Source: Candidatus Latescibacterota bacterium
Lineage (GTDB): Bacteria; Latescibacterota; UBA2968
Length of the DNA stretch: 64,000 bases
Assembly: GCA_965207885.1 (NCBI GenBank)
Contig: OZ242311.1
Span: 5,984,001 to 6,048,000, forward strand
Direction of reading: 5' to 3'
Positions 32,352 to 37,220 of the stretch are shown here, one piece after another. Every line of letters begins with the position of its first letter. The stretch's first letter is position 1. The translations under genes were made by a program, and so were the position numbers. The notes under the pieces are model-generated. The model did not search any database. It worked only from the letters and a program-made list of their open reading frames with translations, and had not been told where the DNA came from.

Positions 32352-35075
32352 GTGATGCGCTCTGTATATTTTCCTCTTCTGATCTGTCTTTTGCCGCTTC
32401 AGGTACTGGCAAGTTCGCCGCCCTATCAAAAGGTCGCCGATGTTTCGCTTGCTGGTTCGCTTTCTCTCCAGCATTATCGCCTCGCCAATGGCCTTCAGGT
32501 TGCGATTGTGGAGGACGATACCAGACCTGTTGTGACATGTCAAATCGCCTATCGCGTGGGGTCTTCTCACGAAGCACCCGGCAGGCAGGGCATGGCGCAT
32601 CTGGTCGAGCACCTGGCAGTGGTTCGCTCATTCCCAAAGTCATTCTACCTTTTGGACGCGCCACACGCCAATGCCAGTACGTCGAAAGATGGTACGAAAT
32701 ACTACGCCACGGTTCCCAAAGCGCAGCTGGATACGCTGATCGCCTGTTTTGCCTGGGGTATGACGCAGTTTGATGTTTCGCAGGAAGAATACGATCTCGA
32801 AAAAGAGGTCGTTCTGGCTGAATGGGCGCGCAGCGCCAATAGTGCGCGTCGGCTTTTGTATAAAAAGATATATGCCCGCATGTTTGCAGGGCATCCCTAT
32901 CGGTACGATATTCTGGGTCATCGTGATACGATTAAGACTTTTACTCTGGATCAAGCGATTGTATTTCACAGGCGTTATTACGTGCCAAACAATGCCTGTC
33001 TTGTAATTGTCGGCGATGTGAAAGGGGCTGATATTTTACCCGTTGTAGTTCAACATTTTGGGGAAATTCCAAAGCGCTATGGGTTTATTCACGACGATAT
33101 TGATACGCTGGATGTCACATCTGTCTCCCAGGATTCCATTCAATATACAACTGCGTTGCATTCTTCTGTTTGGGGTGTTTGGCATATTCCGACAGATACG
33201 CATCCGAATTTTTATCCTTTGTATTTGTTTGATAAAGCTCTTTTTGAAGGTGAATATTCTCTTGCTCGCCAAAGGCTAATTGGTCCGGGGAAAGTTCTCG
33301 GGGTAAATTCCTATTTTCTCAATATGCGCGATAAAGGGCTGTTTTATTATATAGCTGACTTACCCTCGGGTGCGCGTTATGACTTTGAGGCAATGCCGCG
33401 AATTATTCAAACAGCTGTCGATTCTTTGTCTGAGGATCATCTTTGGCTGGCGAGAAACGAAGCGCGTAAGATTTTATATCGCACAATAACCAGTCAGTCC
33501 CGTCTGGCAAATATGATCTCTTCAGGATTCATTCGCACCAGTGATCCCGCCCATCGTCTCAAGTGGATGCAGAATCTCGATGGCATTACGATAGCGGATG
33601 TCAAGCGGGTGGTGAAGCAATATCTTTTGGACCAGCCGCCCCGCACCTTTGTCCTGATCTCTTTTGAGGAGCCAGCACCATCATGGAACGTGTGGCTTTA
33701 TGTGGGTATTGTGTGGGTTCTCGTGGGATTGGGAGGATACTGGTACTGGCGACGGCGAGTACTTGCGGTTGGATTATTTGCAGTCCTTTGCAATATTTCG
33801 GCAGCAGATGCAGAGATCCCCAATCACAAGATATATTACGTGCAGGACACGCGCGTGCCGCAAACGCGGCTTTCAATGAGGTATTATACAGGAGGGGATC
33901 TGCAGGAGACAATGGATACACGTGGTTTGTCTTTTGCGTTTTTTCGCCTGAATGATCTGGCATTACACGGAGAAGATAAAAAAGAGATGGACCGGCTTGG
34001 CGCAGAGTTCTGGTTCAATATTTCCGATCAATATGTTACCGTTAACCTGACCGTGTTTAGCGAAAATTTGGATGCGGCTTTGAGACGCCTGAAGGTGATG
34101 ATGAGAGATCTCACATTCTCTAAAGAACTGCTGAACAGGGAAAGGGCGCGGATCATAGACGATTTTGAGGATTACGTTGATGACCATGAGGTAACAGAGA
34201 TTTTTCGCTATCACCTGTACAAGTCTGACAGAGACCGGCGGGAGGGCACGCGCACAGCACTTGAAAATTTGACAGCACAGGACTTGCAACAATTTTGGAA
34301 TCAAACCTTGCGCGCAAAAGTCCTCTATTTTAGAGTGACTTCTGATCTGAGTAAGTCGGAAATTGAACGCAGTTTGCGCGTGATGACCCACAACCGGGTT
34401 CGAGATGGGTTTTCGCCACGTCCCCGTCCAAAACGCAAAGAGATTACGGGTAAGCGCGCTTTAATTTTGCCAAGCCCCCATCCGGCTGATTTTTGCAATT
34501 TGATAACAAATGGCTTGCCTCGCACAAATGAGGATTGGTTTGCACAAGCGGTTTTGGTCAATGCGCTAAACCGTCTGTTGTTCATTCGGCTTCGCGAACA
34601 AAAGGGCTGGTGTTATTCGGCTGGTGTGAGTATTCAGGAATGGACATCACCGCCAATACTGCATTTTGGGGCTAATCCTCGAAGTGTTTATACTTCTCAA
34701 CTTGTTCCCGAGATGTTTCGGTTGATTAACCATTTTTTGTCCGAGCCAGATTTTTGGGCGCAGGTGGAGAAAGGTCGCGAAAGGCTCAAGCGGGCGTATC
34801 ATTTGCAACTCGGTCCGCAGCCCAGACTCAGTCAGCAAGTGCGCTACGATCGCGATGGGGTGCCCGCGCTTTCGCTGGAGGAATACGAATCGGCTATTGA
34901 TCGGGTGACGGAAGAAGATATTCGCCGCGTTTTCAAAAGGATGCTAAAAGGTCAGAACAAATTGCCATTGCTGATGCTTATTTATGGGAATACTGACAGC
35001 ATTGAGACCGTATTGGATCACGAGGATATCAAGGCGAGGACGACGGTTTTTGATATTCAGACTCTGCTTGAATAA
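32352..35075 (+). CDS. M16 (pitrilysin-like) zinc peptidase, two halves joined by a membrane segment
   Basis: Signal peptide, YRVGS..E, HLVEH zinc motif, YYVPNNA; second M16 half with RLREQKGWCY. Confidence 0.85.
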   Translation: MMRSVYFPLLICLLPLQVLASSPPYQKVADVSLAGSLSLQHYRLANGLQVAIVEDDTRPVVTCQIAYRVGSSHEAPGRQGMAHLVEHLAVVRSFPKSFYLLDAPHANASTSKDGTKYYATVPKAQLDTLIACFAWGMTQFDVSQEEYDLEKEVVLAEWARSANSARRLLYKKIYARMFAGHPYRYDILGHRDTIKTFTLDQAIVFHRRYYVPNNACLVIVGDVKGADILPVVVQHFGEIPKRYGFIHDDIDTLDVTSVSQDSIQYTTALHSSVWGVWHIPTDTHPNFYPLYLFDKALFEGEYSLARQRLIGPGKVLGVNSYFLNMRDKGLFYYIADLPSGARYDFEAMPRIIQTAVDSLSEDHLWLARNEARKILYRTITSQSRLANMISSGFIRTSDPAHRLKWMQNLDGITIADVKRVVKQYLLDQPPRTFVLISFEEPAPSWNVWLYVGIVWVLVGLGGYWYWRRRVLAVGLFAVLCNISAADAEIPNHKIYYVQDTRVPQTRLSMRYYTGGDLQETMDTRGLSFAFFRLNDLALHGEDKKEMDRLGAEFWFNISDQYVTVNLTVFSENLDAALRRLKVMMRDLTFSKELLNRERARIIDDFEDYVDDHEVTEIFRYHLYKSDRDRREGTRTALENLTAQDLQQFWNQTLRAKVLYFRVTSDLSKSEIERSLRVMTHNRVRDGFSPRPRPKRKEITGKRALILPSPHPADFCNLITNGLPRTNEDWFAQAVLVNALNRLLFIRLREQKGWCYSAGVSIQEWTSPPILHFGANPRSVYTSQLVPEMFRLINHFLSEPDFWAQVEKGRERLKRAYHLQLGPQPRLSQQVRYDRDGVPALSLEEYESAIDRVTEEDIRRVFKRMLKGQNKLPLLMLIYGNTDSIETVLDHEDIKARTTVFDIQTLLE

Positions 35076-35236
35076 ACGACCATTCGCAGAGCGAATGGCT
35101 TTAGTGTTCGGTCACGAACACTAAAGGAGGCGAAGTATCGTCGTTTTTCGTGAGCGGTAAAACCTTTACCGCGAACAATAATTAATTTCTTCTATACTCT
35201 TGACGTTGTTTTTGTAGTTGGGTATGTTTTATGTAC

Positions 35237-35311
35237 AGCGGGTTGCCTCAGCATTTCTGTTTATTTCCTCCCTCCCGATAAATAGAGTGCTGTTGGCAGC
35301 CCGCTTTTTTT
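35237..35311 (+). ncRNA. Putative hairpin sRNA 1 (C-rich loop)
   Basis: TTGACG-17-TATGTT (35200-35228); about 27-bp interrupted stem, loop TTCCTCCCTCCCG, T-run. Confidence 0.55.
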
Positions 35312-35347
35312 ATTGACAGGGTTATTTTTGGAATTTATTTTGCTTTT

Positions 35348-35404
35348 GTAGCAGAATTACGAACCTTTGAGGGTGTCGGGAGGGAGCCCTCAAAGGCTTT
35401 TTTT
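35348..35404 (+). ncRNA. Putative hairpin sRNA 2 (G-rich loop)
   Basis: TTGACA-17-TATTTT (35313-35341); stem CCTTTGAGGGT/GCCCTCAAAGG, loop GTCGGGAGGGA, T7. Confidence 0.5.
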
Positions 35405-35414
35405 GTTTATAAAT

Positions 35415-35581
35415 AAAAAAGAGGCGCTGGTTGGGAGGGTATAACCAACGCCTCAAGGGATGTTGCATGGTACCGGATTAGACGCATTTGTACAGAAAAG
35501 AGTTCCAAGAAAGAGTAACGGCGTTGACTCAGCCGGGGTATAGGAGTCAACGCCGATATTTTTGCGACACGCTTTGTCGCA
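35415..35581 (-). ncRNA. Putative multi-hairpin sRNA 3
   Basis: Three hairpins including a perfect 12-bp stem (35519-35555) and a terminator with ATACCCTCCC loop plus T6 on the minus strand; promoter not clear. Confidence 0.4.
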
Positions 35582-35711
35582 TATTCTTTTACTTTTAAAG
35601 GCTGGAAAGGTTCCCGAATGGTGTGATTTTTTGTTGGCTCAAACAAGTTTTAACTTTTTGTGTTATGGTGTATATTGTTGATTCTCTAAAAGATGTGACC
35701 ATGGAGATGAT

Positions 35712-37220
35712 ATGGTAAATAAAAAAATAGAACGCTGGGGACTGTGGCTCGGTCCTGTGATTGGGCTGAGTGTCACGGTTTTTGGAGATCTCAAGCCGGG
35801 ACATCCCGAGGTGACACATACGGCAGGTGTGGCCTGCTGGATGGCGGTTTGGTGGATGACAGAGGCCGTGCCTTTGGCTGCGACGGCACTGTTGCCCGTG
35901 GTGCTGTTTCCCCTGCTGGGTATTATGAGCGGGCAAGAGGTTGCGCCACTTTATTTGAATCATATTATTTTTTTGTTTGTCGGTGGTTTTATGGTGGCAT
36001 TGGGCATGCAACGCTGGAATTTACACCGGCGAATTGCCCTGCGCTTGCTGCTCCTTTTTGGAGGGTGTCCCCGGTGTATTCTGACGGGTTTTATGCTGGT
36101 AACGGCGTTTTTGTCCATGTGGATTTCCAATACGGCGACAACGATGATGATGGTGCCTATTGCGCTTGCAATTGTGGTTAGAATGGAAGAGCAGGGTGTG
36201 GCATCTGGTTCTTTTGGCACGGCGGTGTTTCTGGGGGTGGCTTATGCGGCTTCAATTGGTGGGAGTGCAACGCTTGTGGGTACGCCGACCAATTTGTCTT
36301 TTGTGAGGATTTTATCGATTCATTTTGCAGAGGTTCCCGAGATTTCATTTGCGATGTGGTTTGCTTTTGCTCTGCCTCTGGCATGTGTGATGCTCGTTTG
36401 TGCGTGGGGTGCGCTTTGCCTTGTTTTTGGCATTCGCGGTCGCGGCGATGATATTGATCTGAGTGTGGTGCGCGCGCAATATGCCGAGTTGGGGCCGATG
36501 TCATTTGCCGAGAAGGTCGTGCTGGCCGATTTTGTATTGTTGGCGCTGTTGTGGTTGTCGAGACGCCCCATTCAAATTGGCGATTGGACGCTGCCGGGCT
36601 GGTCTCAGTTTTTCGAATCTGGCGGATTGATAACCGATGGGTCGGTTGCTATGGCAATGGCTCTGATTTTATTTGTCGTGCCCGCGCGGGATGGCGCGAA
36701 ATCCAGGGTGATGGATTGGCAAACGGCTGGCAATGTGCCCTGGCATATTGTTTTGCTGATTGGCGGTGGATTTGCTCTGGCAAGTGGGTTTAAGGAGTCG
36801 GGGTTGTCGCTCTGGTGCGCGCAGCAGTTGGAGGGTATGGGGCGCTTGCATCCTCTATTTTTGGTCGGTGGTTTGTGTGTGATGATGACTTTTTTGACAG
36901 AGTTGACTTCCAATACGGCAACGGCAGAGATGTTTCTTCCGGTTTTAGCGGCGTTATCTGTGGCGGTGGGTCTCAATCCATTGTTGCTGATGATTCCAGC
37001 CACGTTGTCGTGTTCTTGTGCGTTTATGTTGCCGGTAGCTACGCCGCCCAATGCAATTGTGTTTGGCACGGATAGAATTTCTATGCGCGATATGGCGCGC
37101 GTGGGCGTGGGGTTGAATTTAATAGGGGCTGTGATGATTACTGCTGCGATTGCTGTTGTTGGTCGCGTTGTGCTGGGTATTGAACTTGGGGTGATGCCCG
37201 ATTGGGCGAAAATTCAATAG
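35712..37220 (+). CDS. SLC13/DASS family Na+:dicarboxylate/sulfate symporter
   Basis: LSMWISNTAT, TELTSNTA, FMLPVATPPNAI. Confidence 0.92.
   Translation: MVNKKIERWGLWLGPVIGLSVTVFGDLKPGHPEVTHTAGVACWMAVWWMTEAVPLAATALLPVVLFPLLGIMSGQEVAPLYLNHIIFLFVGGFMVALGMQRWNLHRRIALRLLLLFGGCPRCILTGFMLVTAFLSMWISNTATTMMMVPIALAIVVRMEEQGVASGSFGTAVFLGVAYAASIGGSATLVGTPTNLSFVRILSIHFAEVPEISFAMWFAFALPLACVMLVCAWGALCLVFGIRGRGDDIDLSVVRAQYAELGPMSFAEKVVLADFVLLALLWLSRRPIQIGDWTLPGWSQFFESGGLITDGSVAMAMALILFVVPARDGAKSRVMDWQTAGNVPWHIVLLIGGGFALASGFKESGLSLWCAQQLEGMGRLHPLFLVGGLCVMMTFLTELTSNTATAEMFLPVLAALSVAVGLNPLLLMIPATLSCSCAFMLPVATPPNAIVFGTDRISMRDMARVGVGLNLIGAVMITAAIAVVGRVVLGIELGVMPDWAKIQ

Follow-up and report, generated by a model that had tools for sequence, protein, structure and literature searches.

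The question raised by positions 35200-35404 of the window (the whole stretch of 64,000 nucleotides analysed here) is whether two adjoining units, each containing a promoter, a stable hairpin and a T7 run, are the genes of two small RNAs that act on each other. The two RNAs, named RNA1 and RNA2, are probably real and interacting, as judged from comparison of sequences, and they are probably a regulator and its RNA antagonist. The sequence-only reading had described two units, each with a sigma70-like promoter of 17-nt spacing, one hairpin and a U-tract, and all of these elements were found in place, as follows.

35200-35228, + strand: RNA1 promoter, with the -35 box TTGACG (35200-35205), a 17-nt spacer and the -10 box TATGTT (35223-35228)
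35235-35311, + strand: predicted RNA1 of about 77 nt, with the 5′ end placed from the -10 box and the 3′ end taken as the U-tract
35237-35305, + strand: long hairpin of RNA1, doubling as intrinsic terminator (fold of -38.9 kcal/mol)
35266-35276, + strand: apical C-rich loop of RNA1, UCCUCCCUCCC, 11 nt, with the RNA2-complementary segment at 35268-35280
35305-35311, + strand: U-tract of RNA1 (T7), adjoining the -35 box of RNA2
35313-35341, + strand: RNA2 promoter, with the -35 box TTGACA (35313-35318), a 17-nt spacer and the -10 box TATTTT (35336-35341)
35337-35357, + strand: possible small 5′ hairpin of RNA2, predicted and lying partly upstream of the putative 5′ end
35349-35404, + strand: predicted RNA2 of about 56 nt, with a putative 5′ end
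35364-35396, + strand: terminator hairpin of RNA2 with the G-rich loop (35375-35385) and the RNA1-complementary segment at 35374-35386
35398-35404, + strand: U-tract of RNA2 (T7)
35415-35454, - strand: possible 3′ end of a third small RNA, tentatively assigned, with the hairpin 35421-35454 and its loop AUACCCUCCC followed by U6 (35415-35420)

Both promoters and both U-tracts were found on the + strand, and the two genes do not overlap. The only ORFs over the units were one of 32 aa (35218-35316, + strand, over RNA1) and one of 48 aa (35322-35468, - strand, over RNA2), and indels of 1 and 2 nt among the homologues rule out a conserved reading frame. Promoter, hairpin and U-tract were kept in each unit and both stems were found to covary, which supports the claim that the two are self-contained small-RNA genes.

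A promoter scan alone gave no excess over chance (2 sites against 1.6 ± 1.3 in shuffles). The pattern TTGACN-N16-18-TAnnnT was found at the same position before RNA1 in all 24 homologous loci, from 5 genera, and before RNA2 in 23 of the 24, the exception being the locus without RNA2. The same promoter type was found to precede the RNA2-like genes that are unlinked from RNA1. A conserved stretch, GTTGGGTA, was found at the -10 box of RNA1.

The RNA1 hairpin (35237-35305) was found to be unusually stable at -38.9 kcal/mol (z = -9.1), and none of 200 shuffles folded as well. The 11-nt loop was unpaired in both the MFE and the centroid folds. The C-rich loop, CUCCCUCCCGAUA, was found to contain an ultraconserved core, UCCCUCCCGA; in the alignment the core TCCCTCCC was invariant in 19 of 19 sequences, followed by the presence of conserved GA in 18 of 19. 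The stem was altered on both sides at 6 of 21 pairs, a count reached by none of 500 shuffles, with 98.5% of cells paired. Changes of this kind were found at 5 of the 10 pairs of the lower stem, and in the apical stem, where 6 of 11 pairs never vary, the sequence is kept and not just the pairing. The covariance model R1 scored 108 bits at the locus. RNA1 was thus found to present the unpaired conserved C-rich motif amid varying stems that marks a C-rich-seed sRNA.

A paralogue of RNA1, also with a CCCUCCC loop, was found elsewhere in the genome. The whole 6.23-Mb genome contains only 5 hairpins that have a stem of at least 11 pairs and show CCCTCCC, or the complement of this motif, in the loop, and 3 of these 5 were found at 35255-35454 of the window. 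The minus-strand hairpin (35421-35454) was found to contain a 12-pair stem (-20.2 kcal/mol, z = -5.6) and was kept, together with its A-run, across the genus; a promoter was looked for and none was recognised. The C-rich hairpins were multi-copy, and the RNA2-type RNA was single-copy in most genomes.

The RNA2 hairpin (35364-35396) belongs to a fold calculated at -27 kcal/mol (z = -4.6), which again no shuffle among 200 equalled. Its G-rich loop, UGUCGGGAGGGAG, contained the core UCGGGAGGGA; within the core TCGGGAGGGA the nucleotides CGGGAG and the following G and A were invariant, whereas two of the 18 sequences have C for the first T and one of the 18 has A in place of one G. Pairs altered on both sides of the stem were found at 5 of 13 positions in one alignment analysis and at 6 of 11 in another, the latter with 97.4% of cells paired. 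The covariance model R2 scored 90 bits at the locus. The G-rich region of RNA2 was found to be accessible and to be the complement of its partner's seed, and RNA2 appears from its own promoter and terminator to be a stand-alone gene, as a sponge RNA would be.

The segment CTCCCTCCCGATA of RNA1 (35268-35280) was found to be complementary to TGTCGGGAGGGAG of RNA2 (35374-35386) over 13 positions, with 11 contiguous Watson-Crick pairs and one G-U pair, exactly as the sequence-only reading had put it. When the 13-nt RNA2 loop was shuffled with its composition preserved, a Watson-Crick run of 11 nt was reached in 1 of 10000 shuffles. The loop duplex was calculated at -19.8 to -24.8 kcal/mol, or about -14 kcal/mol net of opening costs, of which the RNA2 loop accounts for 2.8-5.3 kcal/mol. 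The energy of the whole-RNA duplex (-33.0 kcal/mol by RNA.duplexfold) was rejected as support, as 246 of 1000 shuffles that kept the dinucleotides of RNA2 did equally well; since the method ignores intramolecular structure, this measure was dropped for loop-only tests. Two closed loops that form a helix longer than about 7 pairs come under topological strain, so that the full pairing of 11-13 bp may need opening of the stems.

RNA1 and RNA2 were found to be confined to two families within one Latescibacterota order. The tandem pair was found in all 20 genomes of the window's genus and in three further genera (g5, g7 and g9), and in most genomes of the window's genus the RNA1 promoter begins a few bases past the stop codon of an M16 peptidase gene. 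The -35 and -10 boxes and the loops were fixed in the alignment of the genus, whereas the spacers and stems diverged; in g5, g7 and g9 the lower and terminator stems were largely different and the loops the same. The 10-nt loop cores were almost invariant while the stems took compensatory changes. A fifth genus, g6, was found to contain the RNA1-like hairpin in 15 of 15 genomes and the RNA2-like RNA in 15 of 15, unlinked; in one of these genomes (G033) the two genes lie about 2 Mb apart, and the RNA1-like gene of this genus was found to have a promoter of its own and to be flanked by other genes. The two RNAs thus co-occur in 5 genera.

The models recovered the RNA2-type RNA from more genera (g1, g4, g5, g6, g7 and g9) than the RNA1-type. 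RNA1 was present and RNA2 was not found in G134 (94% complete), and an RNA2-like RNA was present and RNA1 was not found in G026. The model R1 missed RNA1 in g6, where the RNA1-like hairpin was reached through a loop 11-mer followed by a DNA search, and model-based absences (G026, G134, g2 and g3) accordingly mean only 'not found'. Weak R1 matches in G089, G118, G101, G033 and G025 were plain terminators on inspection. A scan of five genomes with the 9-mer TCCCTCCCG gave hundreds of matches and was uninformative; the 11-mer was usable. A metagenome scan for tandem pairs gave 6 stretches, only 2 of which were real (L243 and L244), and both of these were found to keep the complementarity without new loop variants.

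The sequence-only reading had staked itself on the conservation of the loop complementarity in homologous loci, and this was borne out: of the 23 tandem loci, 21 were found to have at least 10 Watson-Crick loop pairs, and in g6 the loops matched over 9-13 nt in all 14 genomes in which both loops were read. The two weaker tandem loci contained 8 contiguous pairs in one case and only 6 in the other (9 of 10 with one mismatch). The bases flanking the core were G-A-U in RNA1 against A/G-U-C in RNA2 in the window's genus, and G-G-C against G-C-C in g6, with two positions altered on both partners. Loop pairs from the same clade averaged 10.1 and 10.8 Watson-Crick pairs against 9.5 and 9.05 across clades, a small advantage of only about 1 bp. 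The single-genome genera g5 and g7 were found to contain a mismatch at one of the two covarying flank positions. Compensatory changes were found within both stems; between the loops, both nearly invariant, the covariation is weak, comprising two positions and essentially one clade split.

The main reading, to which a probability of about 0.5 is given, is that RNA1 and RNA2 are two independent trans-acting sRNA genes whose products bind loop to loop, one neutralising the other, with RNA2 as the G-rich sponge of C-rich regulators. RNA1 would be essentially one long terminator hairpin presenting a C-rich loop, and RNA2 would be a short 5′ segment followed by a terminator hairpin presenting an exactly complementary G-rich loop. 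RNA1 and its paralogue, and perhaps also the hairpin on the minus strand (35421-35454), would act as regulators with C-rich seeds, pairing with putative G-rich, Shine-Dalgarno-like sites in mRNAs with no need of Hfq. RNA2 would be their antagonist, and its own promoter would set the level of free C-rich RNA, this being the presumed direction of control.

The further claim of an anti-SD repressor with its dedicated decoy is not established. No start-codon enrichment of loop-complementary sites and no candidate regulon were found in an 8-mer count: loop-complementary 8-mers at most 28 nt before candidate starts numbered 80, and a reversed control, which itself contains SD-like words, gave 98, with the gene starts approximated from ORFs. 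The longest matches of the target scan (9-12 nt) were rejected as mRNA targets, as they precede unrelated genes. RNA2 is not exclusive to RNA1, as CCCUCCC loops are also present in the paralogue and the third hairpin, and in two genomes only one of the partners was found.

It is possible, though unlikely, that the two RNAs are independent regulators without mutual action, RNA1 acting on G-rich mRNA sites and RNA2 on C-rich sites or on the anti-SD tail of 16S rRNA, the complementarity being a by-product of adjacent SD and anti-SD mimics. The 3′ end of the 16S rRNA of this genome was found to be CACCUCCUUU, so that both loops resemble an SD/anti-SD pair; the genes are unlinked in g6, only one partner was found in each of G134 and G026, and invariant loops are expected if many targets hold each. 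The complementarity, however, exceeds the SD-like core and reaches 10-13 nt, just 1 of 10000 loop shuffles of equal composition gets to 11 pairs, the flank bases differ between clades yet pair within each clade, and both RNAs are found together in 5 genera, all of which argue against this reading.

Rather improbable is the reversed direction, in which RNA2 would regulate and the C-rich hairpins (RNA1, the paralogue and the minus-strand hairpin) would be its decoys or targets. This would agree with the wider occurrence of the RNA2-type by models and with its single copy in most genomes beside multi-copy C-rich hairpins. In the characterised cases (RosA/RoxS and RsaI), however, as far as they are described in the available part of PMC8216469, the regulator of mRNAs is C-rich and the sponge G-rich.

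More doubtful still is a switch of SD and anti-SD mimics, in which RNA1 would extend the 16S tail (CCUCC within CCUCCCUCCC) and RNA2 would copy a strong SD, the two forming a co-evolving lock and key whether linked or not. If this were true, the ratio of the two promoters would set a block on SD-dependent initiation across many mRNAs, and the pair would act as a minimal toggle built from RNA alone, the first circuit of regulatory RNA on record for the candidate phylum Latescibacterota.

Assembled contigs over 35147-35402 were found in four RNA libraries, each of a different study; they give no start, end, strand or level and may include DNA carry-over, gaps in their cover carry no meaning, and in relatives such contigs extend from RNA2 into the following gene. 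The contigs of two studies start near 35327-35330; the samples contained several strains, and these starts may therefore be an assembly break. From the sequence features we infer transcription as discrete RNAs. It is very improbable that the units are no separate small RNAs but common terminators or repeat-like palindromes belonging to the neighbouring genes, or parts of a single read-through RNA whose loops kiss intramolecularly, since the run of contigs past RNA2 and the position of the RNA1 hairpin as first terminator past the M16 peptidase gene in most genomes of the genus are set against -35 and -10 boxes at a fixed distance in 5 genera with different upstream genes, unlinked genes in g6 with a promoter before the RNA1-like gene, T7 runs after very stable stems in both units, and 10-nt loops held invariant amid stem turnover, which plain terminators do not show.

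No match to CsrA was found in this 97%-complete single-contig genome (3 of 14 control genomes match), and none to Hfq, for which control genomes do match. A protein sponge of the CsrB/RsmZ type was rejected, as the genome is without a CsrA match and RNA2 contains one loop and has no Rfam match. It is hardly credible, more widely, that the hairpins are protein-binding decoys to which pairing is irrelevant, for instance with GGA in the loop titrating a protein like CsrA, or with the C-rich loop bound by another RNA-binding protein: two GGGA motifs were found in the RNA2 loop and the sequence conservation of the RNA1 apical stem (6 of 11 pairs never varying) could reflect protein recognition, but CsrA found no match here where controls did, the single loop of RNA2 is no array of GGA hairpins, the CsrB/Rsm families gave no Rfam match, and the loop-loop match of 10-13 nt would be left unexplained. 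A cis-encoded antisense kissing pair was also rejected, both genes being on the + strand, non-overlapping and unlinked in g6.

Rfam gave no match over the whole window at gathering thresholds. At E ≤10 over 34900-35900 six matches were found (11.7-16.8 bits against cut-offs of 50-100), of which five belong to unrelated families (FasX, two miRNAs, BTnc231 and AaHKsRNA41) and the sixth is BjrC1505, an alpha-proteobacterial sRNA (14.4 bits against a cut-off of 50). RNA1 and RNA2 are accordingly presented as two new predicted RNA families without Rfam match, and the likening of the pair to cuckoo/alpha-r14 and RsaE-type sRNAs gained no support as a matter of family membership.

The two families are now defined by covariance models, promoters and a distribution map, and full-text searches of the literature, a broader one among them, turned up no account of a regulatory RNA in Latescibacterota. 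The pair is a rare case in which a predicted sRNA-sRNA interaction is backed by the evolution of both partners, even after separation of their genes. Should the pairing prove real, the two partners, with a single hairpin each, would make a very small natural system for loop-loop recognition and Hfq-free sponge control, and C-rich regulators with G-rich antagonists would have arisen outside Firmicutes as well. The conserved loops may be used as a marker in metatranscriptomes of these uncultured bacteria.

The partnership of a C-rich with a G-rich sRNA is of an already known kind, and by analogy the closest relatives in function would be RoxS/RsaE, 6C, alpha-r14 and RosA/RsaI. In Bacillus subtilis, according to the available part of PMC8216469, the C-rich sRNAs RoxS (RsaE) and FsrA pair with targets in the SD region, and RosA, a separate sRNA with accessible G-rich regions, binds these C-rich sRNAs and limits their activity; RsaI with RsaG, RsaD and RsaE of Staphylococcus aureus is described there as a G-rich/C-rich analogue. 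The present pair likewise contains a C-rich loop matching a G-rich loop (10-13 nt), with a promoter and a terminator for each RNA. It differs in the lack of sequence or structure homology (no Rfam match), in its phylum, in the presence of one seed loop per RNA instead of two or three C- or G-rich regions, and in the adjacency of the partner genes in most genera; the sponge role of RNA2 is proposed by analogy.

In alpha-r14 (NfeR1, cuckoo), a family of alpha-proteobacterial sRNAs which is Hfq-independent, the ultraconserved anti-SD motif CCUCCUCCC is unpaired and the stems differ, as given in the available part of PMC10746234. RNA1 resembles it in the presence of an invariant C-rich loop above a lower stem that turns over. 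It differs from alpha-r14, which contains three motif-bearing hairpins in about 123 nt, in having one hairpin in about 77 nt, the motif CCUCCCUCCC and no Rfam match. We know of no dedicated G-rich partner of alpha-r14. The 6C sRNA has two C-rich loops. In Actinobacteria its C-rich loops bind several mRNAs without RNA chaperones, and no partner RNA is described in the available text (PMC6486639). The present RNAs differ from 6C in phylum and gave no Rfam match.

In the RNAI/RNAII pair of ColE1 and the CopA/CopT pair of R1, the partners are encoded by the two strands of one piece of DNA and match along their whole length. Recognition between RNA1 and RNA2 would start, as in those pairs, between complementary hairpin loops, whereas here the genes lie on the same strand without overlap, only the loops are complementary, and in one genus the partner genes are found megabases apart.

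The 636-base gap between the M16-family peptidase gene and the sodium:sulfate/citrate-type symporter gene was found to contain two consecutive units on the + strand, for RNA1 with a C-rich loop and RNA2 with a G-rich loop. They are two autonomous predicted genes: each has its own promoter and intrinsic terminator, and a single functional loop carried by a stable stem. The probability that they are real small RNA genes was put at about 0.85.

Features of the locus (window coordinates)
32352-35075, + strand, M16-family peptidase gene (Pfam)
35200-35205 and 35223-35228, + strand, RNA1 promoter, -35 TTGACG and -10 TATGTT with a 17-nt spacer (promoter scan)
35237-35305, + strand, RNA1 hairpin of 69 nt (fold -38.9 kcal/mol, z = -9.1), with the 11-nt loop UCCUCCCUCCC (fold)
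35305-35311, + strand, RNA1 U-tract of seven T
35313-35318 and 35336-35341, + strand, RNA2 promoter, -35 TTGACA and -10 TATTTT with a 17-nt spacer (promoter scan)
35364-35396, + strand, RNA2 hairpin, its loop containing GUCGGGAGGGA (fold)
35398-35404, + strand, RNA2 U-tract of seven T
35712-37220, + strand, sodium:sulfate/citrate-type symporter gene (Pfam)

Both promoter-hairpin-U-tract units were present where the sequence-only reading had placed them, the RNA2 unit beginning two bases past the RNA1 unit with its -35 box up against the RNA1 U-tract. The predicted lengths of about 77 nt (RNA1) and 56 nt (RNA2), for which the 5′ ends were inferred solely from the -10 boxes, were close to the estimates of about 75 and 55 nt in that reading. 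Its 13-bp loop match was borne out by the segments 35268-35280 and 35374-35386, complementary at 13 positions with 11 contiguous Watson-Crick pairs and one G-U pair. Neither unit has a conserved reading frame: only two short ORFs overlapped them, one of 32 aa on the + strand over RNA1 (35218-35316) and one of 48 aa on the - strand over RNA2 (35322-35468), and homologous loci were found to be separated by 1- and 2-nt indels.

The stability of the RNA1 hairpin was matched by none of 200 shuffles, and an 11-nt Watson-Crick run with the RNA1 loop was found in 1 of 10000 shuffles of the 13 RNA2-loop letters. The motif CCCTCCC occurred 512 times on both strands of the whole 6.23-Mb genome; only five of these occurrences were in the loop of a hairpin with at least 11 stem pairs, and three of the five hairpins were located at window 35255-35454. 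Two promoter-like sites were found in 1 kb against 1.6 +/- 1.3 in shuffles, which is the shuffle expectation, so the RNA1 and RNA2 promoters carry weight only because they are conserved. At the expected place, the RNA1 promoter pattern occurred in all 24 loci and that of RNA2 in 23 of 24, the exception being the locus without RNA2.

The intergenic region was matched in all 20 other genomes of the genus. The -35 and -10 boxes, the loops and the U-tracts of both units were fixed in the genus alignment, and the spacers, the 5′ part of RNA2 and parts of the stems were found to diverge in the four most distant members. The tandem pair was also present in three other genera (G024, G036 and G119/G122), where the lower and terminator stems were largely or wholly different whereas the loops, together with much of the RNA1 apical stem, were retained. 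Covariation within the stems, a check proposed in the sequence-only reading, was found in both RNAs. A MAFFT alignment of 19 RNA1 sequences showed two-sided changes at 6 of 21 pairs, with 98.5% of cells paired; neither value was reached in 500 column shuffles, and slid controls paired at 39-52%. Six of the 11 pairs in the RNA1 upper stem were invariant, an unusual degree of sequence conservation. In the RNA2 stem, two-sided changes affected 5 of 13 pairs in the MAFFT alignment and 6 of 11 in a model-fitted alignment of 25 sequences, which is biased towards structure.

The loops were compared in 23 tandem loci, comprising the window, 20 loci from the species-genome scan and two from genus g9. 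The longest inter-loop Watson-Crick run was 10-13 in 21 of them, followed by a run of 8 in G001 and of 6 in G024, where 9 of 10 positions pair with one mismatch. A scan of metagenome contigs added two further tandem pairs, both complementary and with no new variants. In genus g6, the covariance model of RNA1 (R1) gave no matches and RNA2-like genes were found standing alone; a search with the complement of their loop recovered an RNA1-like long hairpin whose loop is CUCCCUCCCGGC and which has a TTGACT-17-TATATC promoter of its own. DNA searches found the RNA1-like gene and the RNA2-like gene each in 15 of 15 g6 genomes, about 2 Mb apart in G033, and the loops matched across 9-13 nt in the 14 genomes with both loops readable. 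The RNA1-like gene sits between unrelated genes and was rejected as a leader. Two RNA1-like copies were found about 4-5 kb apart in G039, G136, G025, G032 and G027 and about 0.3 kb apart in G031, and the RNA2-like gene was single-copy in the g6 genomes with two RNA1-like copies (stretches L183-L203).

By their sequences, the loops are held complementary across the divergence of at least five genera, so the conservation of complementarity expected by the sequence-only reading stood. Covariation between the loops, a further check proposed there, was seen in part. Two core-flanking positions differ on both partners with pairing kept, the sequences being CCCG-A-U (RNA1) and A/G-U-CGGG (RNA2) in the window's genus and CCCG-G-C and G-C-CGGG in g6; in genera g5 and g7 (one genome each), the RNA1 A faces an RNA2 C at the first flanking position, a mismatch. 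Loops from the same clade formed 10.1 and 10.8 Watson-Crick pairs on average; for loops combined across clades, the averages were 9.5 and 9.05. This edge is small, and the inter-loop covariation is thin, being essentially one split between clades.

The loop-loop duplex energy was -19.8 kcal/mol over the 10-nt core and -24.8 kcal/mol over all 13 pairs. With an opening cost of 2.7-5.3 kcal/mol per RNA, the net energy was about -14 kcal/mol, which ignores the strain of joining two closed loops. Neither CsrA nor Hfq was found in the single-contig genome (97% complete), with matches obtained in control genomes. Their absence fits, by analogy, the chaperone-free GC-rich seed pairing described for alpha-r14 and 6C in PMC10746234 and PMC6486639, respectively.

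Part of the 3-kb stretch was present in 17 public runs, 12 of them recorded as RNA. Assembled contigs of four RNA runs, from four studies and recorded as coral or sponge metagenomes, covered the small RNA region at 90-99% likeness, for example at 35178-35356 and 35327-35402 (X1), 35147-35390 (X2) and 35330-35396 (X8). This shows that copies of the locus from relatives are present in RNA libraries; the contigs carry no strand, ends, level or proof of transcription.

An RNA1 paralogue was found by R1 on the minus strand of the window genome (G000:C1:3223234-3223315; L240:1435-1516), upstream of a gene for a molybdopterin-dehydrogenase FAD-binding subunit. A conserved GGTCTGAT segment precedes its long terminator hairpin, which has the loop UCCCCUCCCA. 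The paralogue was kept throughout the genus and also occurs in one nearby genus (L087). A third stable hairpin (35421-35454, minus strand) with the loop AUACCCUCCC (CCCUCCC) followed by U6 converges on the RNA2 terminator. The hairpin, loop core and A-run of this element (35415-35454) were kept across the genus and no promoter was found for it; it is a possible 3′ terminus of a third small RNA with a C-rich loop. At G000:C1:2469371-2469412, in AT-rich intergenic sequence a few hundred bases from an apparent tRNA gene, the loop of a perfect 17-bp palindrome reads TCGGGAGGGA or TCCCTCCCGA depending on the strand, identical to the 10-nt loop cores of RNA1 and RNA2. Three copies of a terminator-like hairpin (G000:C1 near 104055, 105285 and 578897) contained TATCGGGAGGG, which matches the RNA1-loop complement over 11 nt and lies partly within the stem.

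A stretch of about 100 nt (35076-35178) that contains two hairpins separates the peptidase stop codon from the RNA1 promoter. Other genus genomes lack it at that place, and their promoter lies at most about 15 nt past the stop codon. Parts of it match elsewhere in G019, in G017 and once more in the window genome (33 nt), and it looks like a small inserted repeat. Directly after RNA2 (between window 35404 and 35415), about ten genus genomes contained a 0.1-4 kb block. In several (e.g. L036:1759-2873) it encodes a sigma-70-family gene (regions 2 and 4, Pfam; reading in two frames in L036) and a 60-aa ORF without a family; others contained only a short remnant (90 nt in G006), and the window genome has no such block. 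The conserved block 35517-35600 contained a palindromic hairpin GGCGTTGACTC-N13-GAGTCAACGCC (35520-35553) and a small hairpin (35563-35581); in the most distant members of the genus its identity was 81-93%. Another genus (L032) also has the first hairpin, with other surroundings, and the block might be one more small RNA or a site for protein binding ahead of the symporter gene.

An exact-pattern scan for the RNA1 apical hairpin in one genome per prokaryotic species returned 25 stretches, 20 from Latescibacteria or Latescibacterota and one from a further bacterium with the full tandem pair; the four from other phyla had no hairpin and were rejected as chance. Among 151 genomes spanning the phylum, R1 matched in 29 and the RNA2 model R2 in 34, nearly all within two families of one order, and RNA2 was single-copy in the window genome. 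RNA1 was present in G134 (94% complete, 320 contigs), where RNA2 was not found, and an RNA2-like gene in G026, where model and loop searches did not find RNA1; since R1 also missed the g6 homologues, these absences mean only "not found". G023 (82% complete) contained the RNA1 paralogue and an RNA2-like gene. The Rfam search suggested by the sequence-only reading pointed to no known family, with no match in the whole window at gathering scores and, at E up to 10, just six matches at chance level, and a full-text literature search found no paper on small RNAs of Latescibacterota. RNA1 and RNA2 are thus, as predicted families, new in a phylum without described riboregulators.

RNA1 and RNA2 would meet loop to loop and titrate each other, and a functional pairing appears reasonably probable. 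The 16S rRNA 3′ end of the genome is CACCUCCUUU, so the loop of RNA1 looks like an extended anti-SD and that of RNA2 like a strong SD. The C-rich RNAs (RNA1, its paralogue and perhaps the minus-strand hairpin 35421-35454) would act as regulators and RNA2, the sole G-rich RNA, as their antagonist; with a separate promoter for each gene, the cell could adjust how much of the C-rich regulators is free. This repressor-plus-sponge direction, already proposed in the sequence-only reading, is tentative, the roles being assigned by analogy with the only characterised systems of the same design, RoxS/FsrA-RosA and RsaE/RsaG/RsaD-RsaI. In a simple tally, sites complementary to the loop were not enriched before start codons, which were approximated from ORFs, and no regulon emerged.

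These Firmicutes systems pair C-rich small RNAs (RoxS/FsrA; RsaE/RsaG/RsaD) with a G-rich sponge (RosA; RsaI), as described in PMC8216469, and RNA1/RNA2 was likened to them; RNA1 also resembles a one-hairpin version of alpha-r14 or 6C. Since no covariance model matches, RNA1 and RNA2 are placed outside the RoxS/RsaE, alpha-r14 and 6C families. A cis-antisense kissing pair was ruled out, as the genes are on the same strand, non-overlapping and unlinked in g6, and a Csr-type sponge was rejected because no CsrA was found in the genome. The unusual features of RNA1/RNA2 are that the partner genes abut and that each RNA is reduced to a single seed loop.
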